A stretch of 64,000 bases of DNA from Chlamydiota bacterium (GTDB lineage: Bacteria > Auribacterota > JACPWU01): assembly GCA_016178055.1 (NCBI GenBank), contig JACOUC010000036.1, positions 9 to 64,008 on the forward strand, in the 5' to 3' direction. Positions 26,114 to 59,700 of the stretch are shown here, in pieces (position 1 is the first letter of the stretch; each line of letters starts with the position of its first letter). The translations under genes were made by a program, and so were the position numbers. A model generated the notes under the pieces. It did not search any database. It was given only the letters and a program-made list of their open reading frames with translations, and was not told the DNA's origin.

Positions 26114-26119
26114 CAAGAA

Positions 26120-35550: not shown

Positions 35551-35577
35551 TGCGGGAATCTGTTACGCGGCGGCGGC
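35551..35577. repeat. Original copy of the repeat at the ORF2 stop codon
   Basis: See 34715..34740. The two copies bracket the MNT-HepT pair. Confidence 0.7.
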
Positions 35578-38500
35578 GGCGAGTTCTGAGATGGCTTTGA
35601 GGTTGTTGCGAGTGATTTCGTCAGAAAGGTTTTTGCGTTCGATATGAATAGTTTTATTTTCTCTAAATTGTTGTGCAAGATTCGGGTCAATTTTCCCAAT
35701 CATTTCTAACACCTCGGGACTGACAGAATCTACCTGAATATTGATTTCATCATTGCTTAAGAGAATGATGTTAAGATCTTTCGAAATCAAACCTTCATAG
35801 AGACTACGATGTTCCATATGAACGATAAATTGAAAGTCTTTTTTCTCCAGTGCTTCTAATCCATATCCAGGTTTGGCAAGTTCAGCCTTAATAAAGTTGA
35901 ACAGTGCCTCACCCGCTAGGTCCTTACTTTCAGGAGTAAGTAATAAGACACTTCTATTGTTTTCCTCTCCTGTTATGCTAAGCAAGCTGTCAAACTCTGG
36001 CCCCAATGCACTCTTTAAAGAATCCTTTTTAATCTGATCATGATTCATGAGCACAATTTTAAATCCCTTATTATTTTTCATCTTCTGAGCAGCTTCTTTC
36101 AAAATCTCAATATAAAAATCCGCCTCAGGTCGCTTGACTCCCTTTGCATCGACCAAATTAGCTAAATCAAAATCAACGACGCCTTTTCCTTTACCAAACG
36201 ACTCGCGGCTGTTCACAAAGAGATTTAAGAAAGCTTTTGTTGCAACACGAAGATGATTGGGTAGCACTCGTATGTTTTTCAGCTCCTCGTCCTTCCATCG
36301 ATCAATCTGTTCAGATTTGGTTTTTAAACTTAGCTTTTCAGCATCCGTCATTTCATATTGATCAATTTTGGATTTGAAAGTGCTCGAAGGCTCTAATCCA
36401 TTCAGCTCTTCTCCACTGGCAAGTTTCATCTCAAGCTGCAATCTCCAACCAGCCTCGGCTGCAACGCCCGAGCGATGGGCATTAAGGCTCGAGGCTCGAG
36501 GCTCGAGGCTCGAGGTAGAAGACTTTTTCAGGCCAAACTCCCTATCTTCATGATTAAAAATATCATCAACAACATCTTTAAAGTGAATCCGCCCATCAAA
36601 AAGGGTTACCGTCGCGGCTTCAATCAAATATTCAATGGGGATGACTGACCAGCGAACGCCATCCACATCTACCGTGACAGAAGAAGCAGTAGAGACGACT
36701 CCATCTGCATCCGTCGTTGTGAAATAATAGGGATGCCGCCCCCTATCTGGCGAGTCGTTGCGACTTGCAAAAATAATGTTGCGGTCTGTAAACCATTCTT
36801 TGATCTGAGCATCGGTCAACGCCATTCCCCTAACGCTTAAACTATTCTTTAAACGCTCCACATATCCATCAGGTCCCGATTGACGATGTTTAACCTGCTC
36901 ATAAATATCTTGGGCATTTTCTTCAGAAAAATGACCGGACCCAATGGTGCGGGAGGTGATAGAAGAGGGCATCGCTGGAGCTATCGCAAGTGGATCCATA
37001 AGGCTCTGAACCTGAACAGTCTTATCATCCGAACCCTTGCTTCGAATGTTTAAGTTTGGTTGGGTCCTGTCGTCTAAGATATCTATCCCTTCTGCCTGCT
37101 CAACCAGGACGCGTGGAACATCTCTCACAGGAACCCTTGAAATCACTCTTCCCATCTGCGAGTCACTGAGGGGATCAGAGATTCCATCCGTCATTTCAAG
37201 TAGCCAAGACCCTGATGGAACCTCTTCTGCTACAACGACTATTGGAAAATATAGATGATTGGCAATCAGGCTATTCACCACCCTGTTTCTTCTCTGCCAC
37301 AGTTGCTCAGGAGTATATCGATTGAAGTCACTTGGAATGAGATGTTCCCACTTCTCAAAATCACCCTCCTGCTCCACAGTAGAATAAAAGGGCTGCAAGG
37401 TCCATATCAAACGTATTTTTTTTGCCCTTCGGGCATCGTAAATAAGAAGTGACGAAGAGGTTGTCACTGGATAATTGTCTATCGTTAAAGGTAAAAGTTT
37501 TGTCTTAGGCCTTCGTAAATAGACCCGAGAATCGCCCGCATTAATGGTATAGACCATATAGGTTCCGTCTTTTTTTGGGATCACAAGAGACACGGCTGCT
37601 GTTGTCCCCATTCTATTGATCGGAAAAAGTTTTAAAAAAATATTCCAATCCTTTCCGTAGAAGAAAGATTCCAACTCATTAATCCGCGCCTCAGATCGAG
37701 ATACTGCATCAAAAGCCTCTAATATACCCCTTTGATTATCGCGAAAATGTTTCCTTAAAGATTCGACATCACCCTGGGTCGTTGACCCTCTCTTCATCTC
37801 CTCGACCCATTCGGGTGTAAAAATTGACGGCTCAGAAGAAAAGGATTTTCTCAAAACTCTTTTGATCTGATTGCGATCATGGGCGCTTAAGGGGATGCGC
37901 AACACACGAGAGATGATGTTATCTAAGTAGGACTCGATCATCGATTCCGGCACTTCTTCTAAGATCATATAAGGATTTGGAACTTGGCTCATCTTCTCTA
38001 TGACAGAGTGGGCCCTTTTAAAAGAGCGAGCAAGGATTGTATAAACCTGATCTTCATCCGAGGCCTCCTCTAATTCCTCGGAAAGGATAGAGGAAATCAC
38101 AATCTTGGCAAGGGTACTGGCGACCTGCCCTCCAGGACGACCTCCCACGCCATCCAAAACGCCCGATACCCTCCAGCCATTCCTTAAAACCATCGCAAAT
38201 CGATTGTCCTCATTTCGATCCGGATGCGCACTGGAAGCCTTTGTCAGATGTGAAAACACAGTGGCTTCAACCCTCCATCGGTCGACATCCTGTGCTAAAC
38301 TCTCAAGGGAAGCTTGATCATTATGAGAAATGTTTGGATCATTGCGGATTTCGAGAATCAATTTTTCAGAGGGCGCTAAACCTTGTAAATATTTCTGGTC
38401 GCTTCTCTTCCTAGCCAGCAAAAGATCATGATGGATGCGCTCACCCTTTGAGGCACGGTATTCAGCGGCGACACCCACACGATGGGCTTGTTGACGAAGG

Positions 38501-41500
38501 TCAATAGACAACTGGTCGATTCGACTGACTCCCACTTTCTTCATTAGCTCAAGCAATCTTTGATATTCACTTCCTTCATGGGTCACAATGCCACTCACCA
38601 CTCTATCAATGTCTGTATCAAGCTCGCCAGAGGGTTCAAGATAATCGACGGTGATGAGGGTGTAAAGCTGGTTATTCGCCACAAAACTGATGGATGGACT
38701 GCGGGCTCCGATGATATTGGTAAGATAGTGAGAATCTCTTTGACGATCACCTCCCGGCATTTCTCGTAAGTCGCTTAACCGAACATAAAGAACTTGCACG
38801 TTTTGGGCCAATGCCGTTTGATCTATCTCTTCGAGATCGAGGCCCCACTGGGCACACTGATCACGCGTGTTTGTTTGAGTCGTTTTAATTCGATTTACAA
38901 AATCCGTCACACTCAAACTCGTCACATCCGAAAGCTGAATATCCGGGTGATTTCCAACGACATGGGAGTTAAAGCTTCCAGAACCTCCTGAAGTTTCAGT
39001 GTCCCATCCTTCCATACCCATTAGACCCCACTCACCCTGTCCAGTAAAGCTCATATCTCCTCCTGCCGATAAGAAGCTGGCCATGCTGGATTCTTCCGCC
39101 TTCAGCTTTTCACCAAGGCTAATAATCTCGAGCAACTTTTCTCTCGCTTCCTCAAAATCCATTCTGTTTTTTGCTGGATTCAAAACTTTTTGAGTTTCTC
39201 CATCAACAACCACCGAGGAACGATTTGCCGCAAGCTCGTTATGTAATCCCTTCTTTACCCACTCGATCCACAATTTCCACATTTCTCCCTCTCCTCGACC
39301 CAGAGGCCTGTTATCTTCCAAAATATTCAGATTAGGCTGTGCAAACAATTTTCTTAAAAACACATTCACTGTTTTTCTAAATGCTGGATATTGTTGAACA
39401 AGTACTCTCAAACCTCCATGAACTCCTTTTAAAAATTGGTTTGCATTTATCCACGAAATTTCTTCTTCTTGAATATCTTGATCAGAAAAAGGATCTTTTC
39501 CATGACTCAAAACATGAAAAATCATAACAGCCATGCCATATAAATCAGAACGTCTTAAAGGATCTGGATCACTGACATCAACCGGTTCTAAATGTTGCTG
39601 AAACATCTGTGTTAATAACTTTTCCGGTGATAAATAAGAGGAACTGCCTGATACTTGTCCTCCATCTTTAGAAAGGTCATCTGTTTTAGACCTTGCAAGT
39701 CCAAAATCGATCAATTGGGTCTGAAGCGTTATCGGATCTACGATCACATTATCTTCTTTAACATCATGATGATTGACATCACCGTCTTGAACTCCTTGTA
39801 AGGAGTTCAGAAAATTCAGCGATACGCGAGCCAGTTTGATCATGTCGTCCACCGAAAAAGCCCCAGATGATGGAAAATCCTTCACCCAATCATCGAAGGT
39901 CACCCCTTCTACCCATTCCATCGCAATAAAAAAGGACTTTTTCTCTTTTTTCTCTACACCTGAAACGAAAGTTCCTTCTCCAAAATCATAAATTGCTGCA
40001 ACATCTTTACGATGAATTTTGGCTTGAAGTTCAGCCTCCCTCTTAAAGAAAGGTAATTTGTCTTGATCCAATGCCTCTTTAATCAGAACGCGTCTGCCAT
40101 TCTCATCCTCTGCAATCCAAATCCTTCCCATTCCGCCTTGGGCAAGGTAGCCAACAATGTCATAACGATTTTCGAGCCTTGACCCCATATAGGGATATTC
40201 TGATAATTGCTTGCCTTCTAATTTACGAATAGCATCTTGGGCTTCTCCAATCGATAAATCTATACTTGCAATTATATTCTTATGATCAGTGATACGACTT
40301 TTATAGATATTCTTATCTAATCCATTTAAGAAACTCTCAGAAAAAGAAGCAATTCGTTTTATATCTTTAGTAATCTCCCATTTTTCCAACCTTGTAAGCA
40401 TAGTATTCAAGGAGCCTGTGAATGCGGCAGTAAAGGCATCAAAATTTAAAATGACGGTTTTTGGAGAAGTTGTAAGTGTCTGTAAAATAAACTCACAAGA
40501 TTGCTCAAAGGAATCCAATGTTCTTGGAGTTTGAACACTGTTTAAGTTTTCAAGACCTGCAATTAGAGCAATATAGGCATTGGCTAAATGAAGCTGGCTT
40601 TCAAGAGAGGCACCTCCTCTTTGAAGGGATTCAAGATTATTTCTGACCTCTGGTAAAAGAGGAGAAACAAGAGGATTCGTCGAATGATAACTCAAAAGGG
40701 CTTCGATCTTCCACTCATCTACTTGATTGGCTAAGCCCTCAAGATCTTTTGCACCTGTTGGAAGCTTAAGTTGAGAAGCAGGTTTCAGAGATTGAAGATA
40801 TTGAATATTTCCTGTCTTGGCAGCAAGGAGGATGTCCCAATGAATTCTTTCGCCATGAGTCTGAGCAAATTCTGTTCTGACACCCGTCTGATGGGCTTCT
40901 CTTCTAAGCGATTCAGGAAGAGCAGCTATCGTGTCTACCTGAGCTTCACCCATCCTCTCTATCAGCTCTTGATATTCCGACCTCTCATGAACGACAATAC
41001 CTCGGGCAGTTTTTTGAACATCTAAGCTTTCATCAGGCTTATCTTTTAAATAATCCACACTGATCACCGTGTAAAGCTGACCATTCACCACAAAACTGAT
41101 GGAGGAGCTTCTGCTCTTACCCGTTGAATCCGTGAAATAATGAAGATCTTGAGAACTGATCCGGCCAGGAAGGCCATTTAGAGTTGTGAAGAGAATATGA
41201 TGGGTTGGGTCCCCTGCTGTGACTGTCTCTAAAGACTGAGCATCAAGACCAAACTTGCTACATGCTTTTCGCATCTCCTCTTGCATACCTTCTAGCTGCT
41301 CAACAAATTGAGTATCTGTAAGGGTAGTTAAATCAGAAAGTTGAATGTCCTTATTTTCTCCAATGGTGTGGGATTGGAAAATTGGAGTAACTCCAGAAGC
41401 AGAAACAAGTGCTTCCCAACGGTATTGGGTGGGGAATGTCTGCCCTATTTGAGTGATGATAAGGGTTTGTCCATCTTGGCTTAAATTTAAGGAAAACTGA

Positions 41501-44500
41501 GGTGTTGAAATCTTTCTAGCGTTAGTATCATCTGGCAAGAGAAGATCCGATTCAGCAGTTTTTTTAGCGCGGCTTCCAACTGTGACGACTTTACCTTGTT
41601 CTAAGATAAAGTTTTCAACACCCGGCTGCCGGCCAGGGGCAAAAATCTTATCCCCCTTTTTAGGAAGAGAAAGGACAAACTGTCCTGAACGGTAATCTAT
41701 ATGTAATATCTCTTTATCAAAGCTTTCGGGTGCGCCAAGTTTTTTAACTAACCCTTTCACTCCTAAAACTAAGGTTCGGTTTGAGAAGTTGCCGGGTCCT
41801 ACCGGAAGACTGTCTCCGCTTTTCAATTCATTTATCCATTTTTCTGCTTCTACTTTGACAGCAGATTCAACGAATGGCGTGGGTGGTTTTTCTTCACCCC
41901 TAAATGAGGTTCGAGAACCCAAATGTTCTACTTCCAAGTCATCTTCAACTCTTTGGATTCTGACATGTTTTTCTGAAAGAGCTTGAAACAGACGGAGTAA
42001 AGTCTTATCATCCCTTCCTAAAATTTGGCCAGCAGTAAGATGATCCTTATTCCATTTACAAAGACTCGTAGAAGAAATTCCTTTCCCTTCAAAAGACAAA
42101 GCAACCCCTCCATCCAGTTGGAGTGAAACTCTGACTTCAATCGACTCCTCACTGCGTGCTCCAGGCACTCTAAGAATCAAATCTTTCTTTTCCAAAACAC
42201 TCATCGGAAAACGCAATAAAGGCCCCGGTTGATCCTTTGCAGTCTTTACTTCACCTAAGGGGGTATTTTCTAGAGGCAAATCTTTCAGTTCTAAAACTTT
42301 TCTTTGAGCTGAAGGCTGGACTGCAAGAGGAGCAAATTTTGAAGGCTGAATCACCTCTTCATAACCGGTCATGTCATCATCTTTTGCACGACCTCGTAAA
42401 GGATGTGTAGAACCTTTATTGGCAGATGTATCTCTAACTTCACGACTCTTTTGAATCAGAAGAAGAGGGGCCTCTCCAGGGGCTGTTTCATCCATGATTT
42501 TATCAATTGAATCGTGGATCGAACCGCCTGGAGTCTCGTCGGGTAAATTATCTCTCAGTCCATCGCACACCCCTATTAAGCGAGTGCCAGCCTTCACTCC
42601 CTCAGCTTTTACGATAACAGGAATACATTTCATACCCGGTGTTAGAGAAGTTCCGAGGGCGTTCCTGTTTTCAAAAACTTCTTTAGGGTTTCCTTGAAGA
42701 TTGCTAGGAAGCAAGTTCTCACAACGATCACAATCACGAAGACTTAGAACGGAGGCCAAGAAAAGTTGAGGGGTGTTTTTTCTAGCCTTATCAGCCTCAT
42801 CCAAAGAGATAGACCTGTTTCTTTGTTCTTCTGAAGGAATATAATTATCAATGGTCATCACACGTAATTTTTTACCGGGTTCCTTCAAATAAAAACCGGT
42901 ATCCCCTACATTAATCACGTAAATATTGGAAGTCCCATCAGATTGGGGAACAATGATCGAAGTTCCTCCCGCTGTTCCCATATTTGAAAGGGGGAAAAAC
43001 GCCTTCCAAAATGCTTCTATAGATTGATTCTCATTGATTGCCCGATCCATTTTCCTATTCATTTCCTTTACAAAATTTCCTATCAATTTTTTAGCATCAT
43101 CTTGTTTCAAATTAAGAAAAGTATTTGAAAACTGTTTTCCTACCTCTATAGTAAAGAATCTCTTCCAATCATTTAAAACAGAATCTTTTAAAGTAAGAAA
43201 ATTATATTGTTTATCTACATCCTGACCATATACAGATTTCAGATAACCCAGAACGGCGTTAGATAAAAGATTTTCAATTGAATAAGCAGCAAAATGACTC
43301 TTCATCACCCCACGAATTTCCGAGACATCAAATGAAAACTTCAAACGCCCCGGAAGCAAATTCAAAACTTTTTCTAAAAATGAATCCAAAAACTCATCCT
43401 CAAAAAGAGGACGGGGAAGACTTGCAACTAATTCAATCGCAAGTTGAGCTTTTTGATAAGCCTCACCCAAAATCGAAGGGATTTGCTCTTCTGAAGCATT
43501 TGAAATTTTTTGTTTAAGATATTCGCTCACGACAACTCTGGCAATGGTGCTGGCCACTTCTCCTCCTGCCGCCCCTCCCATTCCATCAAAGACGCCTCCT
43601 ACAATCATCTCATCCTTCAAAACAATTCTAAAATAACTGTCTTCATTTCGCCCCATGTGTGCATTTGCAGCGAGAGTCGCCATGCTATAGACTCCAGGTT
43701 CTCTCTTGACTTCAATCCCTATCTCCTCCTCTTCAAGTGAAAGTTGGCCCGGCTTATCCTCATAAGAAATCGTTAGACCTTCTCTATAGCCAATGAAAAG
43801 CTTCCCATCGCTAACACGAAGCGAAACACGACCGATCGGTGTGCCTCCGTTAACCGAAGGAAGGCGAATATTTCTAGTATTGGTATGAGGTCCTAAACTG
43901 CCCAAAAGAATTTTTTCTTCTAAAATATCAGTGGCTCTTGATCCCAAACTTACTTCCTCATCATTAGATCCGATCCGAGAAAAATTAAAATTCCCATCTT
44001 CGAGACTAACTTTCACAACAACCGAATTTCCTAAATCTGGCGAAGAACCCGTCCATGTCAGAAGAATATCCTGAGACTCTAGATCTGTCAGATTGATCTC
44101 TTCAAGTCCGGTAGAAGCTATAACATCAAAGTCATCAATGGCTTGATCTATGGTTTGAGTTCGTTGCTGTGGGTCTTTCTCAAGAAGTTTTCTCAACCAA
44201 TCGACCCATGGAGAAGGTAAATTCAGCAAGCGGGGATGATGAGGATTTTTCTCGAAAAAATCTACCGCAACAGTATTCGTTAAAACTTGCCGTTTTTGAC
44301 CTTCGTCAAGAAATGCCTCTGCCCCAAAAGGATTTTTGCCAGTCAAGGCCTCTAAAAAAAGAGTTCCCAGTGAAAATAAATCTGAAGAGAATCGAACGCG
44401 ATAGCCAGGGGCACTTTCAGAAATTTGATCTATATCTACAATCTCAGGGGCCATATAACCAAGCGTTCCAACTATGCGATGAATCTCTTCATTGACCGAA

Positions 44501-47500
44501 ACTGAGATTCCAAAATCTAAAAGGGTTATCCTTCCCGTCTCCTCATCATAAATGATATTTTCCGGCTTAAGATCAAGATGAACAATATTTGCCTGATGCA
44601 CCTTTTGAACAGCCAAGAGAATCCTCCTAAAACATAGCAGCATTCTCTGAATATCGGCCTCTTCCAGAGTCTCCTTAGCCCTAAACCTCTGAATGAAATC
44701 TTTCAGTTGTTTTCCAGATCCATACTCCATCGCAAAATAGTGACGTGTCCCCCCTGTCGTCGGATCTCGATAGGAACTCTTTTCTAACACCCTTGGGACA
44801 ATATTTTCACCTTCCGAAATTTTAACTACAGCCTCTTGCATCTCCATTTCACGATTTCTTGCCTGACCCTGACTCATAGCGGGTTCTTGATCTAATGGGA
44901 CTTTGACAACACACCGTGTTCCTGCGGAATAAGAGCCTTTTGGTTCATCTGATTCAAGAGGTTTAACTAATTCAACCTCGAAGACCTTGGCGATACTTGA
45001 ACTCACCAATAATCCAAGAATTTTGTACTTTTCTCCAAGCGGTGGCAAATTTTGTTCAGGAAAAGAAGCCATCCAATTTTCCGGGGCTGAATCTTTTAAA
45101 AATGGGAATAATTTTTGTTTCATCTGACGAGTTCGTTCAGGCCCCACAATAGAAACAACTCGATCGTAATCAAAATGATTTCTTCGCTCATAGGCTCTTT
45201 GAGCAACATTCTCAAAACCCTTCATGATATCGTTAAATGTCTTTTCGAAAATAGGTCTTAATGTTGAATCTAATGTGGCATTAGGACTTAACCGTCCTTG
45301 GGTTATATTAAATGCCCGTTGAAATTTAGCAATGGCAAAACCCGTTTGATTAAGCTCAAATTCCCTTAACCCTTCAAGAAAACTAACACTCGCTCGGGTA
45401 TAATCAAGCATGCACTCGTGTAATAAATCTAAGCTTTTATCTCGATCAGAGGATTTCTGTTTAATCGTAATCCCTGGAGTTTTTTCCCAAAATTTCTTTA
45501 GGCTTTCCGATAACTGCATCGCACTAGATTTATCACCCCTTTCAAGAGCTTCGCGAACGACCTGATCGTGCCTCTGAACAAGCCCTATCAATCGCGTGTA
45601 TGTACTCTGAAATTGAGTCGGATCTTTAAGAAGGTTATTCCACAAAAGTTCACAGGCTTTCGCATCATCTTGCGTTTGAAGAGCGGCTTCAACCGAATCT
45701 TGTCCCCTTGCTGAGGGGGAATTACGCGGCGGCGCAAGGGCCGCCATCGAAGCCAGAGGAAGGATCTTAAGAAAATCACTGACCCCTCGTGGCACCCATG
45801 AAGGGAGTCTTCCCTCTCGAGCCCGTAAAATAAGACGGTTATATATCGAGTGAATCAACGCAAGACCGATAGAAGCACTGACTAAAGGTGCCACAGGTGC
45901 ACTAAAAATAAATATAGCTACATCATAAATTCCAAGATAAAAAATGGAAAAGTAGACATAGACGACAAAATAGTTTAAAAATTCTCTTTTAAACGCATCC
46001 CCAAAATTTCGATAGCGCTGATCGCTGGGCAAGCGATAGCGATCGATCATCCACAGCACAATCACATGTCCAGCCGAAAAAAGAAACCCGCTCACGAAAA
46101 ATGCAGTCAAAGCCAAAGGCGCCTGCAAAGAGAAATAATCCACACTTCCATGCACTAAAGACCAAAAGAGACCCGTTTCAAGAATGGGTGCTACCCACGT
46201 GATCAGGATCCTTCCCCAGAAGGTCTTTGATGGCTTGATCAGAAATCGCTCACGAAGACTAAGAGCTGCCTCGCTCACTTCTTGACCGTTACGAATATAA
46301 GTTCTGCCAGACTCATGCGCGGACATCCAGGCTGTATCTTCAATAAAAACTGGAATCTCTTTAAACTCCCTTTTATAGAACTCTTTCAATAGTTCTAGAG
46401 CAATCTCACGAATTTTTTTAGAATCACGGCCTGCTGCCTCCCAAATTTGACCTGAAACTGCAAGTAGTTTTTCCTTTTGTTTCTCTCTATCCAGGTTTCT
46501 CATTGCTTCAGGCTCTGGTATGATGATCTGTGTTCCTGTCGGCGAAGAAAGTTTTTTTGCAAACTCCTTGAACAAGTGATGAATGGCCTGGGCATGTCCC
46601 TTTTCAATTTGGGGTATGGCCATAGTACCAGTGTCTAAACCGCCTTGCTGACGAACTTGCTCTTTTACCTCTTCAACCTTTTTCCAATATTCAAAAAGCT
46701 CTGTTTCAAAAAATCTCATAACGTTGATTTCATCCGGGATGGCCGCTAAAGAACCCAGGTAAGCCGTGTATTCATCGTTAGGGCGTGAAAGCCCCTTGTT
46801 CAACAAGTCTGCCAACTCATTCAATTTATGAATCGCTTCATGATAAACGGTGGATAATGTCAAGCGCTCGTCTCTCCCCTCTTTAAGAAGAACATAAACC
46901 TCATCCTGCTTGCTCGGAGCAAAACATCTGTAATTATCCTTATTCGTATAATCTGGTCTGACAAAGGCAACCCGAAATTCTGAATAGGGCTCAAGATGAA
47001 TCGGGATATAAGAGTCTAGGCGGCCCAAAAGAACGATGTCGGACGGGTGGGCATAAAAGACAAGATGATAGGGCTTGAAGAATTGTCTTAAGAATTCAGC
47101 GGCTTGTGTATAATTCCAGCTCTTTTGAAGAACGGCTCCCACAGATTCCACAAGTTTGGGATTTTTCCTTTTCATGTCACTGATCCAGGTCTGATATTCA
47201 CCACCATCCGCCTGAAGCTTGCCTTGAAAGAATTTCAATAACATTGAATAAATCCCTTCTGCTTGAGGCTGGGTATAGGTTGGTCTGAAAGATTCACCCT
47301 TTAGAAGAACCTCCCCATAAACCTTCAGGCTTGTCTCAAACCAATCAAATACAAATATTTCACCATCCTTTCCGTCAAAGAACAATTTCCTCAACTGGCT
47401 GTGAGCACTTCGATCTTGGCTAAAAAAAGCGCTTTTATCTTGAGAAGAAACCTCAACATTCGAAACGTACTCATTCACCTGACGTGTGAGAAAGGTTGAA

Positions 47501-50500
47501 TTGTCAACGATGCTCCAACTATTTTCTTTAATCAAAGAGCCCCAGGCCAGCACATGAGCCATTCGAATAATATTGGGGCGGCCTTTCTCCATAAAGGATG
47601 GAGGAATTTTTGCTTGTAACTCCAAATCTTGCGGCAATGTCCAACGCAGCTTGTGATACCAAGCGGCTTTCAGCTTTTCAAACTGAAGCGCCTCGGCACG
47701 TTCGGACTCATTAAGACTCTGATCCATAAAGATGTAATAAACAGGATTTTGTCCATCACTACTTTCAACAGGCAAGAGATAGGCCCCTGTAAAAGATTTT
47801 AGATGCTGGCCGATGACATCACTTTCATTCTGACTGTCATAATTAAAAATACGACAAGTGATGGCTTCATTATTAATGGTTTCCGTTGTCACCTCTCCCT
47901 GTGTGGAAATAGGCAATTCAACTGTTTTCTCTAGGTTAATGGTTTTCCCAAGACGGAGCGCTACCCTTTGCCCCTGAATCTGTTGCGCTTTGATTAGAAT
48001 CACTCCATCACCCTCTTTCCCCAAACTATCTCCCTCGCTCCAAATATTCTTACGAGCGCCGCCACCGGTGATATTGGGCGGATTAATCGAGGGAACTCGC
48101 AGAAGAGCGGGGGCTAAACTTCCACTGCTTAAGAGGCTTAGGCTCAAAATGACACCGCTCATTCTTCGGGCAAGAATTCCATGCTGCCTCAACCAATTCC
48201 AAACGGGATAGAGCCAATTCATCCTTCCTTTAAGTTCTCTTCTCGCCTCATCTCTAAACCTTTCTTCATAGGTATGAATAGAATCTATCGAAAGAATCGG
48301 ATAGCGATATTTTTGCAAAAGAGGATTGATGAGCCCAGACAATTGATTTTGATAATTAATTCTTGCTTGAATATTTTCGGCCTTAAATGCACTTTCAACA
48401 AATCCTGCCAATTCAGTCCCATTCATCTCTAATATTTTCAAACGGCTTAATTGAGTCAATCCTTCAGGTGTTTGACCCGCTTCAAGGTAGGATTGAACTT
48501 GATGGGCAATGATTGTGGCTAGAATAAGAGCTTTATCAGTATTGGGATGATCCCGCTCATCAGCATCAAAACGCTCCTCTACACCCGGAAGAGCAAGTAG
48601 CTGTGTTTTTAATTGAGAGTCCCTTTCACCCAAAGCAGCTAAAATAATCTGAATGATTTGCCATTCTCCACTTTCATGTCTCAAAACTTCGTCAAATGCT
48701 TGACTTGGCTTCCCCTGACTGCAAAGATCTTGCCTTACCTGAATAGCAAGGGCTGTAGCAGTGCCCTCATGCCCTCCATGATGGCCTCTTGGAAAATTTT
48801 TCAGAGAAAGAGAAGGTTCTACTGCTTGATCCGTTACAGGATTTAAAATGGGCTGACCTGACCATACAAGAGAAGGCGAAACTTTATCAGTCACAGATCC
48901 AGATGCAGCCAAGGAAAGTGGAAGAGCTGAGTCATCACCCGGATAGCCCACAAATGGTTCCCGTCTCATAGATCCGACTAGAGGTATTTCACCTAAAGAT
49001 GGAGCAACAACCGCAGGCACACTCGCAAGTCTAGGCAAGAGCCCAAGCCGAGATTGAGTCGGAGGTTGAAGCTCACGCATGGCCGTGGGTAAAAGGCCTT
49101 GATAAATATTTAGAATGATTTCTCTAGAAAGATCTACCATTGCTTGAGCAATTTGTTCAGCTGAAATTTGTTGTTCTCGTCCTGGAGGGCCACGAACACC
49201 TGCAAGTTTATTTAACAAAACAGGAGGAGCTCTTCCCGAAGAGGGTTCTACCCATTTTTGAAGTTCTAGAGCAACAGCCTCACGTGATTTAAGAATACCC
49301 TTTACATATAACGCCTTCTTTGCGAGTGCATGAAGTGTTTCCATTCCTGGGCCTGAGAGACCTGCCTTCAATCCTGCATCACGAATTCGAGCCATATATT
49401 TGGCAGTCTTCATTAAAGTTTGGATCGGATCCCCCTGATACGACTCTCTCTGGTGCTCAAATTTACCTAAGAGCTCAGTCATGGAATGAAGGTAACGCAA
49501 GGGCGTCATATCGATGAATTCAATTCTCTCACCCTCTTTCTGCATTTGATTGACCACATGGAAAATAGCCCCTGTAGAATAGTGAGGATCTTTCTCGAAA
49601 AGACGGACTTCCATGGAGAGGCTTAACAACTGAACTCTCTGGGACATACTCAGCGGTATAATATTTTCTTGAGTGACGACATTATTTTCTTCCTTGAAAC
49701 GAGCTAATCTCTCAAGCTTCCTTCGTAAAATTCGACGTCTGGCTTCTTCTTCCCGCAATCCCTCTGGAATTGTTGGATCCAAATTTGAGATTTCAGCGGC
49801 AAGCTGCCCTTGTACTTTTCCATAGTAGGCCTCGGCTTGTGCCAAAAAATCTTGCAAGGAAGGAATTTCCTTTAAAGACTTCCACATTTCATGGGAAGGA
49901 CCCCCCCCATCGATCAAAAAAGCAGTATAGGCGACCTGAGTCTCCAATAGCAATGCCTGTTGACGACGAAGAGAATCTTCTTGGCGAGAGATATCGATGA
50001 TCAAGGGGTCTCCATAAGAATTTGCATCGAAAACCTGATAAGAAGAATCTTGAAAGCCCGCCTCTTTCCAAACATCATCAAAGGCCATCAAAATCCGCTC
50101 GGACCCTTCATTGAGAATGCTGAGGTCATAATCACTCCCCATTCCAACTGAACCTGTAGAGTTTAAACGGACTTCTCGGAAATTTTTGATTTTTGAATGA
50201 ACTTTAATCCAAGAATAATTCTGATGAGCCCTTTCTTCCGCCTTCATTAAAAGGGTATCCACAACCGCCTTTCTCTGTCGTTCAAAAGCCTTTTGAAGTT
50301 CTTCAGAAAGATTAAATTCTTTCACCCATGCACGAATCTGATCCCAATCTTGCACCTCTTTAAAAAAGGCAAGAAAACGCTCATCCACCCCCTCATCGGT
50401 GACTTGGGAAAGTCCATTTCCAACAGAAGATAAAAGCTTTTGAAGAGGAAGAGGAAGCGGCTGATGAATCCTCTGGATAATATTTCCTTTATAAAAATCA

Positions 50501-53500
50501 AAGTCATAGGTCAAAAGATTTCCCTTTCGATCGGTAGAAGTAAAAAAAGTTTCTTTCAAAACGCCCAGGGCATCGCGAAAATAAGTTTCTGCCTCTACTC
50601 CAAACTTCTGAAGTAATTCTGAGCTCCGCGAAAGATTTTTTAAGAGATATTCCAACTCCTTTGAATTCATCATGTACCATGAACCCGCAATGGCGACCAC
50701 CTCATGGGGATTTTGTTTCCAATGAGACCGGTCTCCCTCTTTATCTTCTCTAAGTTGGCTGAAAGAAATACCTGCCTGACGAAGTTGAATCGCTCGAGCC
50801 TCAAGAAAACCAAATAGATCATCCCCTTTTGTCTCTTTAAATTGAGCGATTTCCTCATCTATTTGGAAAACATCGCCTGTTAGCTGGATCATATCTTTTT
50901 TGTTCAACAAATTCATATATTCATAAAGATCCGAACTCACATAAACCACCTCTTCTCCTCGTTCCTGACGAACCCAACCGTCTGGTTGCAATGATCTAAA
51001 GCCCTCAATACTGAGGGAAGCAAGCTGATCCATTGTAAACCTGCTCCCTGCATCATCAATATAAGCGGTAAACCCCGAAGCCTTACTCATACGAATCCAA
51101 CGATCAACAGAGAAGAGAGGCGTTTTTTCACGATTTGAGCCCGTCGAGAGTTTGTGACACAGCTCATGAAAAAATGTGACCGCCATCGGCTCACTTGTTC
51201 TTTGTTGCTCTAACAGTTGAAAATTAAGTGAAAGGGAAAGAACCGTTTGAGCAAGCCGAGCTACCCCCAGTGAAGACATTCCTCTTTCCGCACCTGAAAA
51301 AGCAATAAAGGTACGATAGGCATCCGTCATGGGGCGGGGAAGAAAACTGACGGCCTCTTCCATTTCTTTTATGAAAGACTCTGGAATGGGTGCCTCAATC
51401 GCAATGTTACGTGCTCGAGCCTCAAGGTGGAGCAAAACTAGATGATATAAAATAGATGATTTCCACTCTGCTTCTCTTCCCAGGACAAAATTTCTTTGGA
51501 GATATGAAAGCAAATTTTGTCCTTCCCGATCTATGCCTCTTTCCTCTTTTTTATATTTTTGAAAGAGAAAATCATTAAAAAGATGGCTAACCATATGATT
51601 GAGAATTGCATCCCCAACATCCGGAATGTAGGATAGTGCGATCATCAAAGCCCCTATCTCATCTTGGGTCAGCTCAAGTCCGCCAAGAGGATTTTGGAAA
51701 GTGCGGTCAAACACGGAAAGATGAACCGTCCTGGTTTCAAGACAATTTGATACAAATAGGACCAGTTGATCCTTAAGCTCAGGTCGTATAGGTAAAGGCC
51801 TCAGCTTTTGTTTGAAGCTCTCTAATTCAGGCCTTTCTACAACCGTTTGTCCCCCCAAAACTTCCAGTTTCACCGTTTCAGCTATATCAAGTCTGCGAGG
51901 CTCAACCGAAGGAACCAATATCGCTGAATCCCCTTCCACAGAACGGGCCGGCATAGATGTAAAAATACCGCTGGGTTTAAAAGCAATGGAAACTGGAACA
52001 ACCTCGCGTACAGTAGAATCATGTTTTCCATTAATACCCTCAACAATTGTGGCTGTACTCGTAAGAGCTTGCTTCAAAGCACTTATTTTATCCTTTATGT
52101 TTAAATATGAACCATTTAAAAAATTAATCACTTCCTTCAAAGCAGGGGTCACCACAGCAACATTTGCTTGGTAAAAACGAAGAGCGGCCTCTAAATCAGA
52201 ATAGCTATAATGTACCGCCAAATAAGCAGCAACTTTCTTTACAGAATCAAGGTCCCCTTCTTCGAGAAGAGGAAGCTGTTTATTTAACCCAACTTCTTTG
52301 CCGTCTCTAACATAGACACGAGACAATTCATGAGCCCTCATCCAGCTTGTATCCTCTACAAAATCTGGGACATACCCAAGTCCTTTTTCATCCCTGTAAA
52401 ACTCTTTCATGAGTTCCAAAGCAATATCATGAATCTTGTTGGAATCCTGGCCTAAATCTAGCCAAATTTTTTGCGAGATAGCCTTTAATTTTTCCTTTTG
52501 TTCACTCCTAGACAACCCCTGCAAATCAATAAACTTAGGAATAACAATTGGAATTGCGGTCCTTGCAGAAACTTTTTTGGCAAATTCTTTGAATAAATGA
52601 TGAATGGCCTTGGAATGCCCCCCTTTATCGTCGCTTTCAACAGCCAAAGTGTTTGAAGTTGATTCACCTCGTCCACGCGCTTGGGCTTTAGCTAATTCGG
52701 CCTCTTCCCAATAGCCAAAAAGCTCTGTCTCAAAAAAACGCTTCACATTGACTTCATCAGGAATGGCAATCAAGGAGGCAACGTAAGCCGTATATTCATC
52801 ATCAGCAAAACTCAATTTAAAATGTGGATTTATCTTTTTTAATAAAGCATTAAAATTATGCAAAGCTTCATGATAACCTGTGGAAAGTCTTAAGCGCTCA
52901 AGTTCTTCACTAGAAAGTTCCCGCCGACTCTCGCTATCCTGCAATAGAACATAAACTTCATCATTTATTCCCGGAATTTTAAAACCTCGGGCATTTCCTC
53001 GATTATCGTAATCTGGATGAACAAAAAGGATACGAAATGGGGGATGAAGACCTAAACTGATCGGAATGTATGAATCTAGGCGACCGAGCAAGATCGAACC
53101 ATAAGCTCTTCTACTCTGGAAAACAAAATGGTAGGGTTTAAAAAATTCCCTTAAAAATTCTGCGGCGGCAGCATAGCCCTGTCCTTTTTTGAGGATAATT
53201 TCAATATTTTTAAAAAGCTCTGTATCTCTATTTTTGGGGGAAAAGCTTACTTCTATTGAAGGATTTCCACTTTGAAGAGATACTCGAAAGCGGTTGTAAA
53301 TTTCTTCAACCTCTGCCTGTGTGTAGGACAACGGTTTTTCTACAGAGGATAGTGAATAAGGGCTCTTATTCTTTCCAAGATGCCTTACAATCAAATGACC
53401 CTGACTATCCTTCTTTAATGAAAGATGAAAACGAGATATCAGACTTTCAGAATCCTTAATAACTAAATTGAGACTCTTCGGAGAGCTTCCAGCAAATGGC

Positions 53501-56500
53501 GAACTTCCAACCCGTAATTCTTGATCACCAACCTGAATGACGCTCTCACCAGAAACCACAATGAATTGACCCTTTGCTGAATCATATGTAATAGTAATAG
53601 GCGCCTCTGAATAACCTGCGAGTTTGACCTGTAAAATTTTTCCAGATAAGAGATCAGGTGAAATGCGGTAGAATTCTCCTTTCTTCCAAACTCCTTCTTC
53701 CAGCGATATAGATTGTGAAAATCTGATTAAGGCTTCTTCCTTCCATTGATCTATTTTTTGGGCCAGCTCACCAAGGACATCCGCATATTTAACAGGCAAA
53801 CCTTGCTGGACATATTCTTTAATCTTTGATTTATATTCACGAGCACTTTTGAGATTGTCTAAATAAGCCCAATCGCCTCGTTGAGTTGCACTGAAAATTT
53901 CATAACGAATTCTTTCTCCTTGAGAAGCTCTATATTCTGCAACCACCCCAACTCGATGCGCATGAAGTTGAACTTTAGAATCCTTAGATTGTTTGGCCAA
54001 ATTTTCTTTTGTCTCATGGAGAGCGACACCTCTGATCATTTTCATGATATCAAAATCAAGGGCTCTCGCTTCTTTCAAAGACTCTAGGCTCATCACCGTA
54101 TAAAGTTTTCCATCCACTTCAAAACTGAGGGTCGAACTCTTGCCGCGCGAGCCTTCAAAGAAAACAGAAGTCGAATCTGTCCCCGAACGCAAAGCCCCCG
54201 GTAAATCTTTTAGAGAGGTAATAAAAATATTATTCTCTTTAAGCCAATCAGATTCATCTTTTTTCAAACCTAGTCCAGGGGAACTTCCATTCACCAAACC
54301 AATCTGTAAACGTTGAAGAACCATTACAAAATCTATCGAACTCAATGAAGTTAAATCCCCTAATGCCAATTCCTGATGCTCGCCCACCGGCTGAGCGGTG
54401 GAAAGAGGAATTATTTCCGCTACCGGAGGGCCACTGGCTTCGAGAGCAGCTATATTAACTTCTACCTCAGACAGCTGTAACCCCATAACCTGACTGGTTT
54501 TTCCATCGATTAAAAAAGTAGCGAGATTAATTATTAAATTTTTTCCGGGCAAACCTTCAAGAGGAATCGCACATAAAAGCTCGCTTCCTTGTAAAATGAA
54601 TTTTAAATTTTGAAGATCTAGAGAGAAATCTCGAAGAATAGCCCCTGGCGACGACCGATCTTGTTCGAGCGCAGTCGAGAACCCGCTCTTTCCCATAGCC
54701 TGAAGCCTTGCCCCAACAAAATCACCAAAAGATTGTGGACTGACAGCCGCATCAGTTGCTTTAAATTCAGCATAAAGACTTTTTAAAATGGTCGAAATCA
54801 ACTGAAGTTCATAGGCAATAATCGGAGCTCGGTCTTCGGGAAGGCCTTCAGCATTGGTCATGAGCCAATGCATGAGACTCTTCTGGCTCGAGGCTCGAGG
54901 CTGGAGGCTAGAGGAGGAAATAGGAAGAGATTCATTTTCTGCTTCTTCGGTTTGTTTTTTTTCTTTTGTTTCTGCCTCGAGCTTCGAGCCTCGAGCTTCG
55001 AGCCTAAGATTTTCCCCCACCCATTTCTCAAAAGGGGTCAGCTCCCCCATCATTACAGATTCATAGCGGTCCGCAGAAGATGCATTAAAATGAGGGATGA
55101 AGACAACATACGAGTAGCCCGCCTGTTTCAAGGCTTCCTTTAGAGCTGGAGTATGGAACCCCCCGGTCATCACGGCCCCGAAAGACTCATCAGACTCTTT
55201 CAAGCGATTTAACGCCCGAAGCGTCATTTCATGATCCCGTTCAAGCGTTGCTTCATAATAAGGTTCGATCTGGCTAAGCCGATCGGCCAAGGGATAATGG
55301 ATATCTTCAGCATGCTCTTCTACAGTGTAAGCCCCCGATTCATGCTGAATGAATTTTAAAATTTTTGGAATGAGCTTATCTTTTTTAGAAACGTATTCCT
55401 GATATTCAGATTTCTCAATGGAGAGATCTGTAAGGCGATCCAGAAGATTAATAAAGGATGAATAGAGGCATAAAGATTTTTCTTCCTCGGTCACACATTC
55501 AGCAAATAAGGTTTCAAAGGCAAGTTTTTGGATTTGTTCAAAGAGGAGGGCATCACTGACTTTTTGCACCGCTTCGAGATAGTTCATGTAGTTTTGGATA
55601 TTTGGATAAGAATTTGAAATGCTCGAGGCTCGAGGCTCGAGGATCGAAGCAGGCATAGAAAGCTCCATAAACCTCTTCACTGTCTGATAAAATTCTAAGG
55701 GGGCAATCTCATTCAAACGATACGATAAAGTCTGCTCTAAAAATTTGGCCATTTCCTCATCACTGGCCTTTCCGTTGACGGCGATGAGAAGCTTTCCCAT
55801 TTCATTGTGAATTTTCTTTAGATCAATATTTTTCTTGAAGGGAAGCGTTGCAAGATAAGGCTTAATCTCTGAAAAATTTTCAAGATTGATTTTTGCCTTT
55901 TCGCTCTCCCTCATGAGACTTCCCATAAAATGCTCTAAATCTATTTTGTAGGTAAGATAGTCATTCAATTCCCTTACAAAACTCTGAACTTCACCTGTAT
56001 AGACATAATCCGAAAACTGAGCCATTAAAATTTTTAATTTAGCAATATGCTCTTTCAATTCTTTGCGAAGAGAGACCGTATCCCGGTAGGCATGATAATT
56101 TTTTAAGTAGAGATGGATATCCTCAATCCCATAAAGTTGAAGAGGCTTTTCTCCATTGATCGCTTCAAACTCAGCACCCGTGAGCTGACCCAAATTGAGA
56201 TATTCCTCGGACACCTCTTTTAATATTTTTTTATCGGGGAAAGATCGAAAGCGTTGGGTCGAGAGCTCACCCGAGGCGGCTTCGATGTTGATCCTTTTAA
56301 GATTATATTTTTGAGCGAGATATTCTAAGAGGTCCACCGTATTTTTCTGAGCTTGAGGATGGGCATGAATATCCTGAAAGAGGAAAACGGTATGGCTTGA
56401 GTTCGGCGCTTGATACGTCTCGATCACCCGTCCCAGCTCTGTCGGAATAAAAATAGAGGAAGAATTTTCAAGAGAAGAAATGGACGCCGCTTCTTTAGCC

Positions 56501-56701: not shown

Positions 56702-59700
56702 CTACGCCTTTACCGCAGCCAAGTCATACATCTGACGCGTTGCTTTATATTTTTCCTCGTCTAATTCTTCTTTCTTAAGATGCACGCTATAGGTCTTCAC
56801 TCCTTGTCCCACCTCTTTTGCCTTAAACCGTTTTGCAAGCTCTGCATTCATTGCGCTCAATTTATCAAACATCGTTTGATCAAGCTGGATATCAATCGCA
56901 TCGCCCAGTATGAGTTGATTCAAAATTTTCGAGTAAATAGATTGATGGCTGGGGTCGATCACAACCTGAATATTTTGAACTTGTAATCCCATTAAACCCT
57001 TCGCCTCAGCCGCTTTTATAATATAATTTTCCATATTTTCAGGGCTTGCCTCTTCTCGAGTGGGTGCCTGCTCAAAAATAATTCCTTCATTTCTAAATCT
57101 CAACAAAACTTCGGCTCCAGGAATTTTCTTATCAACCAATGCCTGAAGGCCACCGATCTTACCTTCATGGTCAACCAATACTATTTTCATTTGGCCTTGA
57201 CTCTGACGCATCTGGGCCGCTGCTTTTACTAAAACTGCAATTGAAGCCTCAGCCCCAGGACGAGCGATATTATTACCATCCACAAGAGTCGAAAGATCGA
57301 TCAGCAAAAGCGCCGGAGCTCTATCCAGTGCCTCTGGTCTGTCCATAAAAAGTCCACGAACAACTCCCTCAAGCGCTTCAGCCTTAGACGCTTCAAAACG
57401 ATTCGCAGATGTTTTCCGGATTGACTTCTGAAGCAATGCAAATTGTTTAACCGAGGTCTCAAATTTTTCAATTTGGAATATGACATTATCCGGAGACTTT
57501 CCTAAGGCTGTTAATATCAAGGGTAAATATTGCTTAATAAATTCTCTCTGCTCAGCACGATCATCTCCAATCACAGCTTGAAGGGCATCTAGATCCATTT
57601 CTCGAATTTCATTCCAGAGAAATTCTACTTGAGTAATATCAGTCCAACCATTTTCAATGATTTGAAGGGCCCAGGCCAATATATGACTGACACGAGCAAG
57701 ATCTGGTAACTCCCCCAACCCCTCTTGAACCAAGAGGGGAGTCCCTCCTACTGAAGTCTCTCCCCTTTCTTTTAAGGGGGAGCTGGAGAGGTTACTCTCC
57801 ATCCAATTTTTAATAAATATTTCCATCTTTTCATGCTGAAGAGCAATTTTTTTATCTTGGGCATTCCTAGAAATAAATATATAGAGCTTGCCATCATTCC
57901 CATAGCAGTGATAGGCCCCGCCGACCGTCTTTAAAATATCTTTTAAACCTGGAAACAATTTTTCCAGATGAGGATCATTTTCATCATAGTTCACTTCCTG
58001 ATACGTTGTAACCCCTCTAACTCCCCTTAAACTAAGGGGAGAGCCCGTCTCCCTTCCCGATTCAAGAGTAGCCATCTCCCCTCTTGGTTCAAGAGGGGTT
58101 GGGCGAGTTACGTTCTTTAACTTACTTAAATAAGGGTCGCCATCATCAATTGTCACCGTCCGACTCTTACTAATTTTTTTTAGATTTACTGCAAATTCAA
58201 TCATCTTTAATTCCTTATCACGACTCAAACTCACTTGATGATGCACCAATTTCTTACGAGCTCCGCCGCTTCCTGGCGTACCAGAGCCCGGAGGTGTTTT
58301 GGAGCCTGAAATTCGGGCGAGCCATCGGACGAAGGGAGATTGCGCAAACGCTTCAACCTTAAGCCAAGAAATTCCTGCCAATGTTGTATAAATTAGACTT
58401 TTTCGAAAGGTTAATTCCTCTAATGCCCTTTCCCTGAACCTTGATTCATAAGCGTTTAACTCGTCCATATTAATCTGCATAGTTCGCATAGGTTCTGGCA
58501 TGCGCCTATTTAAAGTTTCTATGACCCGATGCTGAAGAGATGCCCGCATTTCAGACGTTTCTGCTTCAACTCTTTCGAGAAATGCAGTGTCTTTCTCCCT
58601 CATTTTTCTTTCATGAAGTAGTGTCAACCCTTGTTTTCCATATTTGATGACCTCTAAAGCCGCCGCCCCTATGTGAGCTGCAAGGACAGCGATGCTATAT
58701 TCACGAGTTTCTCCACTATATCTTGCTCTACGCTGGACAAGTCTCTCTTCTAAAATAGGCTCTAGTTCATCTATCAAATCTGGATTGCTTATAATCCACT
58801 GCATCAAGTGCCATTCTGAAATTTCATGAACACCCACTTCGTCACGTTCTTCCATTTTAAGGTTTCGACTCATCCAAATTTCAACACGATTCCTTTCAGC
58901 AACTTTAATCACCGCATCATTTCCTTGAAGTTTATCAGCAGGCACCAAATAACAGCTTAGTTCGGCATCTTCACCCAAAAAGTTTTTAATCTGTTTATAA
59001 GGAAAAGATGGAATTAAAAATGACTCGTACTTATTTGACTCTGCCGGCTCATGAAGTGAGGGAAGACCCATCTCACCCTGAGAAGAACGGCTTTGATCGG
59101 CCCTTTGACCCGTAGAAGTAGTTGTAGAAACTGCATGAGCAAGCGTACCAAAAGCACCCGCCACCTCTGGAGCCAAAACATCATCAACGATTTCGATGTC
59201 AGGTGAAATTTCCTCTGGTAAAACAATGTCTAATTGATCTAGGGCCTCTGAAGTCGACATTCTCTGTGTAACGTCCTTCGCGAGAAGTCCTCTGAAAAAA
59301 GTTTGAAGATCGGAATTCAATTTTGAAAAAGCTGCTTCATATTGTCCATCAAAGGGATCGACATTTGTCACCTTTTCACGCCCTTTTACTGCACGACCTT
59401 GCCCCGTGGGCACTTCTCTATCCATGACTCGAAAGGGACTTGTGTTTAAAAGGGACATATATAAAATAACCCCCAGTGCAAAAAGATCACTTTTAAAACT
59501 GAAATTGCCATCATAAGTTTCTGGAGACATATAGGTAAGAGAGCCAATAATGAATCCGGATCGAACCTTTATTTCAGGAGAACCCGCAGCCCCAAAATCG
59601 ATCAGGGTCATTTTGTTTGTTTTAGGATTATAAAAGAAGTTTGCAGGCTTAAGGTCTCGATGGACTAAATTTAGGCCATGAACTTCTTCCAAGGTTTTCA

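Follow-up and report, generated by a model that had tools for sequence, protein, structure and literature searches.

The stretch of DNA analysed here (the window) comprises 64,000 nt of contig JACOUC010000036.1 of assembly GCA_016178055.1 (positions 9 to 64,008 of the forward strand), and carries three open reading frames (ORFs) of great length on its minus strand: ORF1 (3931..19998; 5,355 aa), ORF2 (35563..56601; 7,012 aa) and ORF3 (56702..63754; 2,350 aa), the last being a paralogue of ORF2 that lies 100 bp upstream of it. The subject of this report is ORF2 and in particular the segment 37130..45030 (residues ~3858–6490), where an earlier note, made from the sequence alone, had described a complete Ser/Thr phospho-signalling set (kinase, FHA-like segments and PP2C-type phosphatase) occurring twice in one polypeptide. 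Coordinates are those of the window, and the domains and segments of ORF2 listed below lie, like the three ORFs, on the minus strand.

The 7,012-aa gene ORF2 is genuine and belongs to an uncultured bacterium from groundwater that carries the label Chlamydiota. Its product is 100% identical to the deposited proteins MBI1870667.1 and MBI3276470.1, which are annotated as "MAG: protein kinase [Chlamydiae bacterium]", come from a groundwater metagenome-assembled genome (MAG) and are found on two contigs. The GC content is even along the gene (0.39–0.45), and since its paralogous modules share 61–81% DNA identity, ORF2 is not the outcome of a recent duplication or repeat introduced during assembly.

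Two kinases and two PP2C phosphatases in one chain

Four catalytic domains are found in ORF2: kinase A (44092..45039, aa 3855–4170), PP2C A (42346..43704, aa 4300–4752), kinase B (39232..40176, aa 5476–5790) and PP2C B (36967..38265, aa 6113–6545), in the order that had been described. The Pfam Pkinase family matches ORF2 in two stretches (3e-49, 168 bits, cut-off 31.7). The catalytic residues of all four domains are present according to Pfam, alignments to PDB sequences and profile comparisons, so that the claim of two kinases and two phosphatases in one chain holds, and both writer and eraser, each present twice, look catalytically competent by their motifs.

PP2C A contains the motifs NED, DGMGG, GDT, DG and DDDMT, and PP2C B the motifs NED, DGVGG, GDSR, DG and DDKT. 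Pfam detects PP2C_2 at aa 4318–4385 of PP2C A (2.6e-7, 30.9 bits, cut-off 24) and, as a borderline match, PP2C at aa 6330–6373 of PP2C B (2.5e-4, 21.3 bits, cut-off 20.3). When PP2C A was searched against the PDB as a single sequence the match was weak (E=0.005), with three aligned pieces collinear with the solved PP2C tPphA, and a profile built from PP2C A, PP2C B and three relatives matches tPphA at 1.7e-21. These relatives, P0002 (1,962 aa), P0003 (279 aa) and P0004 (4,812 aa), were the top three from an exhaustive HMMER search with aa 4170–5320 against 1.84 billion representative proteins, a collection clustered at 50% in which orthologues of 50–90% identity could sit hidden in the cluster of ORF2. 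The search returned 75 proteins at E<=1e-3, and every one but ORF2 itself matched by way of its PP2C domain. In the alignment of PP2C A, PP2C B and the three relatives, the metal-binding Asp motifs NED, DG(M/V)GG, GD(S/T), DG and DDxT are invariant. The ORF2 domains share these motifs with tPphA, PstP and Stp1-type PPM phosphatases but are very divergent from them, with a large insertion after the first helical hairpin and a flap of ~95 aa; a flap of about this length occurs in all members of this PP2C clade, PP2C A included.

The insertion in PP2C A had been put at ~200 aa. An insertion is indeed present, between the helical hairpin that follows DGMGG and the GT(A/T)A strand, but it is 143 aa long (42997..43425, aa 4393–4535), and a homologous insertion of 121 aa occupies the same site in PP2C B (37627–37989, aa 6205–6325). 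Alignments of the three relatives with PP2C A and PP2C B continue on either side of the gap, and in the comparison with PP2C A the insertion is missing from P0002, P0003, P0004 and tPphA. Identity between PP2C A and PP2C B is 25/102 over the insertions and 101/313 over the rest. Because the insertion is common to both and absent from P0002, P0003 and P0004, the alignments indicate that PP2C A and PP2C B are true sisters, intragenic duplicates made after an insertion of ~120–140 aa had entered the catalytic domain. Neither insertion has a significant match to a Pfam family; a Ribonuclease_P match in that of PP2C B (E=1.6e-4, 22.2 bits, cut-off 22.3) covers 18 residues only and was dismissed as spurious.

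Kinase A is a Hanks-type kinase with the motifs HLDLKPEN (HLD at aa ~4008), DFG and APE, and its Gly loop, previously called degenerate, reads VSSSIAKV and contains no glycine at all. Pfam aligns this domain from profile position 69 onward, and the N-lobe lysine (CVVKV) and the alpha-C glutamate were placed by eye and with MAFFT. Its best solved relatives are eukaryotic kinases of the CAMK group, namely STK17A (7.5e-18), DAPK3 and phosphorylase kinase (PhK). It shares HLD with STK17A but differs from DAPK, STK17A and PhK in the glycine-less G-loop, an inserted beta2-beta3 loop and an unrecognisable N-lobe. Kinase B is PknA/PknB-like (6e-16), and the alignment with the mycobacterial PknA and PknB spans the whole core: the G-loop (QGGMGR), the VAIK lysine (VLIK), the alpha-C glutamate (REAE), HHD (within HHDVKEDN), DFG and SPE, the difference being HHD in place of HRD. 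ORF3 encodes two further kinases (aa ~888–1180 and ~1221–1527) and no PP2C. In an alignment of the four kinases of ORF2 and ORF3 the catalytic loops read HLD (kinase A), HHD (kinase B), HND (ORF3 kinase 1) and HRD (ORF3 kinase 2), which bears out the statement that three of the four are non-RD, and all four keep the catalytic Asp, the Asn and the DFG and APE motifs.

Pairwise scores between kinase A and the two ORF3 kinases are 84–89 bits and that between kinases A and B is 61 bits, while the top score of kinase B, 77 bits, is with an ordinary RD kinase of a relative. By these scores kinases A and B come from different lineages, with A grouping with the ORF3 kinases and being CAMK-like, and B being PknA/B-like.

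FHA-like segments

Four segments of ORF2 show the pattern G(R/S) ... S..H ... hLG: seg1 (aa 975–1095), which lies outside the 37130..45030 segment, and, within it, seg2 (43702..44094, aa 4170–4300) in the linker between kinase A and PP2C A, and the adjoining seg3 and seg4 (together 41410..42219; aa 4795–4950 and 4950–5064). A hidden Markov model made from the four recovers just those four within ORF1, ORF2 and ORF3. The Pfam FHA model gives no match at E<=0.1 to the whole of ORF2, nor at E<=10 to seg2, seg3 or seg4 when each is searched alone; seg1 alone gives E=0.013 and 16.4 bits, under the cut-off of 20.7. When compared by hhalign with the genuine FHA domain of the window (in the neighbouring gene described below), the four-segment profile falls in the correct register around SxxH at a probability of 6.4%, and a search of the segment profile against all PDB sequences returned no FHA domain.

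Each segment was also compared by hhalign with a four-sequence FHA profile (the window FHA, Rv1747, TB39.8 and OdhI). The scores were 23.1 for seg1 (0/60 shuffles as good), 15.6 for seg3 (2/60), 15.4 for seg4 (4/60) and 11.1 for seg2 (31/60), with probabilities of 10% or less throughout and matches spanning just 13–44 columns of the SxxH strand region. As to the phosphothreonine-binding residues of FHA domains, seg3 has GR and SEKH without the Asn, seg4 has GS and S..Q, and seg2 has none in register. AlphaFold2 run on aa 4785–5070 without homologues gave a predicted local distance difference test (pLDDT) score of 34, too low to inform, and the exhaustive protein search found no homologues of seg3 or seg4 apart from ORF2. 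Judged by these comparisons, the resemblance to FHA is at motif level, marginal in seg3 and seg4 and best in seg3, and it falls below every accepted threshold, so the segments are not demonstrable FHA domains. The "reader" component proposed earlier has no profile support and is unproven, seg2 being indistinguishable from shuffled sequence.

Module X and the history of the two halves

Self-comparison of ORF2 reveals four copies of an orphan alpha/beta module, X, with the invariant motifs HExxE ... AHxxGVxxE ... DxWxxE. Copy X1 (53701..54450, aa 718–967) is in the N-terminal half of the protein, X2 (40669..41412, aa 5064–5311) follows seg4, X3 (38242..38991, aa 5871–6120; 40% identity to X2) lies between kinase B and PP2C B, and X4 (36280..36870, aa 6578–6774) is truncated at its N-terminus and is the most divergent copy. 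No further copy occurs in ORF1, ORF2 or ORF3, and no homologue was found in the 1.84-billion-protein library besides ORF2, in Joint Genome Institute (JGI) metagenome contigs, among PDB sequences or in Pfam. An AlphaFold2 model of moderate confidence, computed from the four paralogues (pLDDT 69.7, predicted template modelling score 0.72), has a small sheet and, after it, long helices bearing the invariant residues, and Foldseek retrieved nothing from the PDB below E=0.1 with this model. Compared with the HExxH of zincins, X has an invariant HExxE, followed by AHxxGVxxE; a zincin-like metal site in the modelled X is so far a lead and no more.

A sensitive comparison of aa 3600–5320 with aa 5321–7012 (E<=5) gave exactly four alignments: kinase A with kinase B (offset 1,621 aa), PP2C A with PP2C B (1,813 aa), X2 with X4 (1,474 aa) and, out of order, X2 with X3 (802 aa). 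The earlier note had proposed a tandem duplication of a ~2,000-aa super-module. The part of this proposal that stands is the order kinase, PP2C, X, in which the blocks of both halves align, collinearity beyond the catalytic domains being confined to X. The spacers are non-homologous, seg2 occupies the place that X3 has in the second half, and seg3 and seg4 are without counterpart there. Furthermore, kinase A is nearer to the ORF3 kinases than to kinase B, and X2 is nearer to X3 (176 bits) than to X4 (46 bits), which contradicts a simple duplication of a super-module. The most economical history would be that the insertion-bearing PP2C was duplicated, that X was duplicated repeatedly, and that the kinases were recruited from different lineages.

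Relatives of ORF2

ORF1, ORF2 and ORF3 have in common an N-terminal domain of ~500 aa, and the resemblance between ORF2 and ORF3 extends to a middle region and a C-terminal domain (35566..36279, aa 6775–7012 of ORF2; at the C-terminus of ORF3) that belongs to no known Pfam family. The N-terminal domain (54742–56496, ORF2 aa 36–620; ORF1 aa ~40–780; ORF3 aa 7–606) follows a signal-peptide-like start and holds an LxQD(I/A/V)H motif. A Pfam scan gave no significant match to it, and profiles lent no support to a suspected likeness to TraB/TIKI proteases. It is also found in P0002 and P0004, together with a PP2C of the ORF2 type, and Pfam detects no kinase in either of these proteins, which also lack X and the module Y described below.

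Further relatives were sought by scanning species-representative genomes with the PP2C profile. The best loci were giant ORFs in MAGs labelled Elusimicrobia (L001, L002, L003, L008 and L029), and tBLASTn placed the N-terminal domain upstream of the PP2C in four of them, at a distance of 1.2–1.4 kb in L001 (domain at 6614–8236) and L002 (3878–5512), 0.7 kb in L008 (7862–9262) and ~6 kb in L029. Neither a kinase nor X, Y or an FHA-like segment was detectable in any of these loci. Since no kinase was found in P0002, P0004 or the Elusimicrobia-labelled loci, the double kinase/PP2C layout is peculiar to ORF2 among the retrievable relatives; scans of JGI metagenome contigs with X and Y profiles returned no ORF2 orthologue, and a look-up found the exact product of ORF3 not to be on record. 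The N-terminal domain seems to mark a family of giant membrane proteins, and ORF1 and ORF2 have the features of giant multi-enzyme membrane proteins: more than 5,000 aa, several unrelated enzymatic domains, hydrophobic blocks, and relatives such as P0004, L001 and L002. Outside its four catalytic domains ORF2 has nothing significant in Pfam, NCBIfam (no model at its cut-off) or PADLOC. A role as a defence system was considered on account of PADLOC matches to PD-T4-6, mad6 and MkoA, and rejected, as these are generic kinase-domain matches without system context.

Membrane topology and proposed function

A hydrophobic block of approximately four helices (45826..46209, aa 3465–3592) lies just upstream of the kinase/phosphatase half of ORF2, is flanked on both sides by Arg/Lys-rich sequence, and is followed by no clear helix in a crude hydropathy scan. 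Given the basic flanks, the tail of ~3,400 aa that carries the kinases and phosphatases should face the cytoplasm by the positive-inside rule. Signal-peptide-like N-termini are present in all family members, with a canonical site in P0004 (between APAYA and QAS), and in the polytopic P0002 and P0004 the PP2C comes immediately after a group of membrane helices. A match of the ORF2 block to Rce1 is not significant (E=0.58), and a suspected likeness to CPBP proteases has no profile support.

On these grounds we favour, at about even odds (a probability of roughly 0.5), the reading that ORF2 is a giant receptor-like kinase/phosphatase scaffold, in which a cytoplasmic signalling tail is carried on a Sec-targeted, polytopic giant membrane protein. 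The non-RD kinases would not be gated by activation-loop phosphorylation and, because they need none, it would fall to the tethered PP2Cs acting with them to set the net phosphorylation. Target sites could lie on ORF2 itself, on ORF3 or on recruited substrates, and the PP2C insertion and long flap would likely serve as regulatory handles or surfaces. Several observations weigh against this reading. Kinase A has no G-loop glycine, and its VAIK lysine and alpha-C glutamate were assigned by eye; the topology comes from a crude hydropathy scan in which a helix at aa 2816–2834 is weak, leaving the number of helices between signal peptide and tail uncertain; ORF3, apart from its signal-peptide-like N-terminus, shows no clear membrane helix, so that its kinases might be exported; and copies of X and Y would fall on both sides of the membrane.

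The main alternative, that ORF2 and ORF3 are Sec-exported multi-effectors or toxins, from which kinase and phosphatase modules are released (perhaps by internal, peptidase-like HExxH/HExxE modules) to act within a eukaryotic host or a bacterial prey cell, in the manner of MARTX toxins or Legionella kinase effectors, is considered unlikely. It would account for the signal-peptide-like N-termini across the family and for the two kinases of ORF3, which has no convincing helix past its N-terminus. The nearest solved structures to kinase A are eukaryotic CAMK kinases with the same HLD, there is weak NCBIfam similarity, far under the cut-offs, to the effector kinases LegK1 and XopAU, and the source is labelled Chlamydiae. 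However, Pfam and NCBIfam scans recognised no translocation, receptor-binding or autoprocessing domain, the relatives P0002 and P0004 plainly span the membrane several times and hold the PP2C in a loop that follows a transmembrane block, and in ORF2 the four-helix block with its basic flanks precedes the enzymatic half. MAGs labelled Elusimicrobia contain the nearest family members, and in a second close relative (other than the one whose locus is described below) genes for cytochrome c biogenesis and for multihaem cytochromes lie nearby, suggesting a free-living respirer rather than an obligate intracellular chlamydia. Such genes sit oddly with obligate intracellular life, so the "Chlamydiae" label is to be used cautiously.

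The model of the earlier note, in which the writer/reader/eraser set was duplicated as a super-module and each half would be a self-sufficient phospho-switch with FHA docking on phosphothreonine, is less likely still. The order of kinase, PP2C and X and the three in-order offsets agree with it, as do the correct FHA register of seg1, seg3 and seg4 at the SxxH strand, above most shuffles, and the GR and SxxH kept in seg3; FHA-PP2C fusions also exist, the neighbouring gene being one. However, the Pfam FHA matches are below the cut-off for every segment and absent from 37130..45030, the hhalign probabilities and the PDB search are as given above, and half B is without any FHA-like segment, quite apart from kinases that are not sisters, an X2 that pairs with X3, and non-homologous linkers.

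We are equally sceptical of a mostly non-catalytic scaffold, in which kinase A, possibly along with other modules, would have been retained as a binding pseudo-enzyme. The glycine-less G-loop and unrecognisable N-lobe of kinase A, GDTG in place of GDSR in PP2C A, the prevalence of non-RD kinases (3/4) and the extreme divergence of aa 4170–5320, matched by only 75 of 1.84 billion proteins, could be taken in this way. Yet none of the four kinases has lost the catalytic Asp, the Asn, DFG or APE, the metal-binding Asp positions are complete in both PP2Cs, and a non-RD loop is normal in the active kinases DAPK, STK17 and PhK, which are the best matches of kinase A.

A more elaborate scheme is a long shot: ORF2 would have a type-I topology (signal peptide, exoplasmic part of ~2,800 aa, helices and cytoplasmic tail), its two mechanistically different kinase/PP2C pairs would phospho-switch the X modules, representing a new metal-dependent enzyme fold, and the FHA-like segments would be a degenerate, lineage-specific phospho-reader. 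Finally, a fusion of separate genes through misassembly or a wrong genetic code, which the metagenomic source and the failure to recover an orthologue in other collections might suggest, is scarcely credible for 21 kb that are stop-free when read with the standard bacterial code (whose number of stop codons no alternative code exceeds), have uniform GC content and encode an identical product under two accessions and on two contigs, and for a family whose other members also have multi-thousand-residue ORFs with the same N-terminal domain.

Comparison with known systems

Composite proteins that combine a PP2C with a Hanks-type kinase have been described in Pseudomonas aeruginosa, P. putida and Deinococcus (Krupa & Srinivasan 2005, PMC1262709), and Pkinase ranks with the most frequent partners of PP2C in bacteria (PMC12088040). 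Like the composite proteins, ORF2 has antagonistic kinase and PPM phosphatase domains on one chain. However, these are of ordinary size with a single pair and an N-terminal PP2C, whereas ORF2, at 7,012 aa, has two pairs in the order kinase then PP2C, interleaved orphan modules, and PP2C insertions of 121–143 aa. In KAPP and bacterial FHA-PP2C proteins, such as the product of the neighbouring gene or DRA0334 of Deinococcus (bioRxiv 10.64898/2026.01.23.701218), an FHA domain precedes the PP2C, and the position of seg2, with its FHA-like motifs, before PP2C A repeats this order; in contrast to those proteins, the FHA identity of the ORF2 segments is not demonstrable, and seg2 scores no better than chance.

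Giant multi-enzyme membrane proteins are known from Omnitrophota (bioRxiv 10.1101/2023.11.21.568195, 10.64898/2026.06.07.730766), and the passages of these reports that were searched include Ser/Thr phosphatases among the listed domains and make no mention of a Hanks-type kinase or a paired kinase/PP2C. As described there, they resemble ORF2 in being membrane-anchored chains of several thousand residues with unrelated enzymatic domains tiled among sequence in which nothing is detectable, but ORF2 is of another lineage (labelled Chlamydiota, with relatives labelled Elusimicrobia) and has a different conserved N-terminal domain. In the kinase-kinase-phosphatase (KKP) module of Pf prophages (PMC11341870), two Ser/Thr kinases and a PP2C-type phosphatase form one functional unit; these are separate, small prophage genes, whereas ORF2 is one chain, and no phage or defence context was detected for it.

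Since both kinase-PP2C fusions and giant multi-enzyme proteins have precedents, and the FHA domains are unsupported, ORF2 is an unusual variant of the known kinase-phosphatase fusions and no new kind of system. Its novel points are that the set is doubled, that the domains follow this order, that both PP2Cs carry the insertion, that orphan modules accompany them, and the lineage in which all this occurs. Should both pairs prove active, ORF2 would be the most compact natural case known to us of two opposing kinase/phosphatase pairs in one chain, and would offer ready material for work on how tethering fixes steady-state phosphorylation. It also shows that giant multi-enzyme proteins, so far reported chiefly from Omnitrophota, can include Hanks-type signalling domains in a further deep lineage. 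Its practical value is limited, as the organism is uncultured, there are no orthologues for comparison, and the "reader" part is unsupported.

Other modules and neighbouring genes

A second orphan module, Y, is 340 aa long and present in two copies (52282–53328, aa 1092–1440; 46267–47280, aa 3108–3445) that are 51% identical. It contains an invariant YHEAxH (HExxH) and long invariant stretches such as AIHHLFKEFAKK, and had no match in Pfam, in a profile search of the PDB or in JGI metagenome contigs. By its motif, Y may be an undescribed metallopeptidase-like domain. Another HExxH, in FFHELCHKL at aa ~1810 of ORF2, coincides with a sub-threshold SprT-like match (E=0.016), and at aa ~2140–2165 (window ~50100–50200) the sequence GSVGMGSDYDLSIL contains what we take to be the hG(G/S)x9-13Dx(D/E) signature of Pol-beta-fold nucleotidyltransferases.

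The gene for an FHA-GAF-SpoIIE(PP2C) protein (20287..21978; FHA 1.6e-17, GAF 5e-15, SpoIIE 1.9e-39) lies directly upstream of ORF1, as previously noted, 288 bp away and on the same strand. In a relative, GCA_964640155.1, the corresponding locus (L073), whose MqnE is 82% identical, carries in order GDE, FHA-GAF-SpoIIE, a 677-aa RD kinase with HEAT repeats, a desaturase, UbiD and MqnE. Over positions 3061–6846 of this locus, compared with 3931–21978 of the window, there is no giant gene at the position of ORF1, which looks like a lineage-specific replacement or insertion. Since the FHA-GAF-SpoIIE gene stands beside GDE in the relative without a giant gene, it belongs to the conserved local synteny. 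A functional tie to the giant genes was rejected on these grounds; its proximity to ORF1 is probably incidental, and its natural partner appears to be the ordinary 677-aa kinase that follows it in the relative.

ORF1 itself encodes a ClpB-like double AAA+ unit (aa ~1876–2493; AAA_2 1.3e-61) and a GT4 glycosyltransferase (aa ~4080–4470; 2.4e-29), along with several hydrophobic blocks and a short M50-peptidase-like stretch. The ClpB-like part overlaps a compositional anomaly at 12001–14000 (GC 0.488, GC skew +0.21, AT skew -0.26). Immediately downstream of ORF2, a 1.27 kb region (34288–35562) contains no ORF of at least 150 aa and falls within the lowest-GC bin of the window (0.377), and no tRNA gene was found in the whole window. 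Between two TldD/PmbA-type peptidase genes, and overlapping their ends, is a gene of the PD-(D/E)XK nuclease family (26110–26655; PDDEXK_3, 1.2e-27).

Lastly, three to four tandem copies of the heptanucleotide GCTCGAR occur at ~14 sites of the window (28 overlapping matches at <=3 mismatches; 0 in shuffled sequences), confined to the three giant ORFs. They include 8848–8926, 17972–18049, 18549–18577, 18799–18916 and 19491–19558 in ORF1, 36487–36515, 54886–55003 and 55621–55649 in ORF2, and 63040–63068 and 63371–63399 in ORF3. None was found in 74 related loci. The repeats are present in both orientations, often as inverted pairs 50–90 nt apart, are always in frame, and encode LEPRASS or LEARGSK peptides. 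They probably explain a 43%-identical patch between ORF1 and ORF2, and could represent in-frame palindromic mini-insertions or mRNA hairpins; as RNA, the pair at 54876–55013 is predicted to fold at -53 kcal/mol (z = -6.3).

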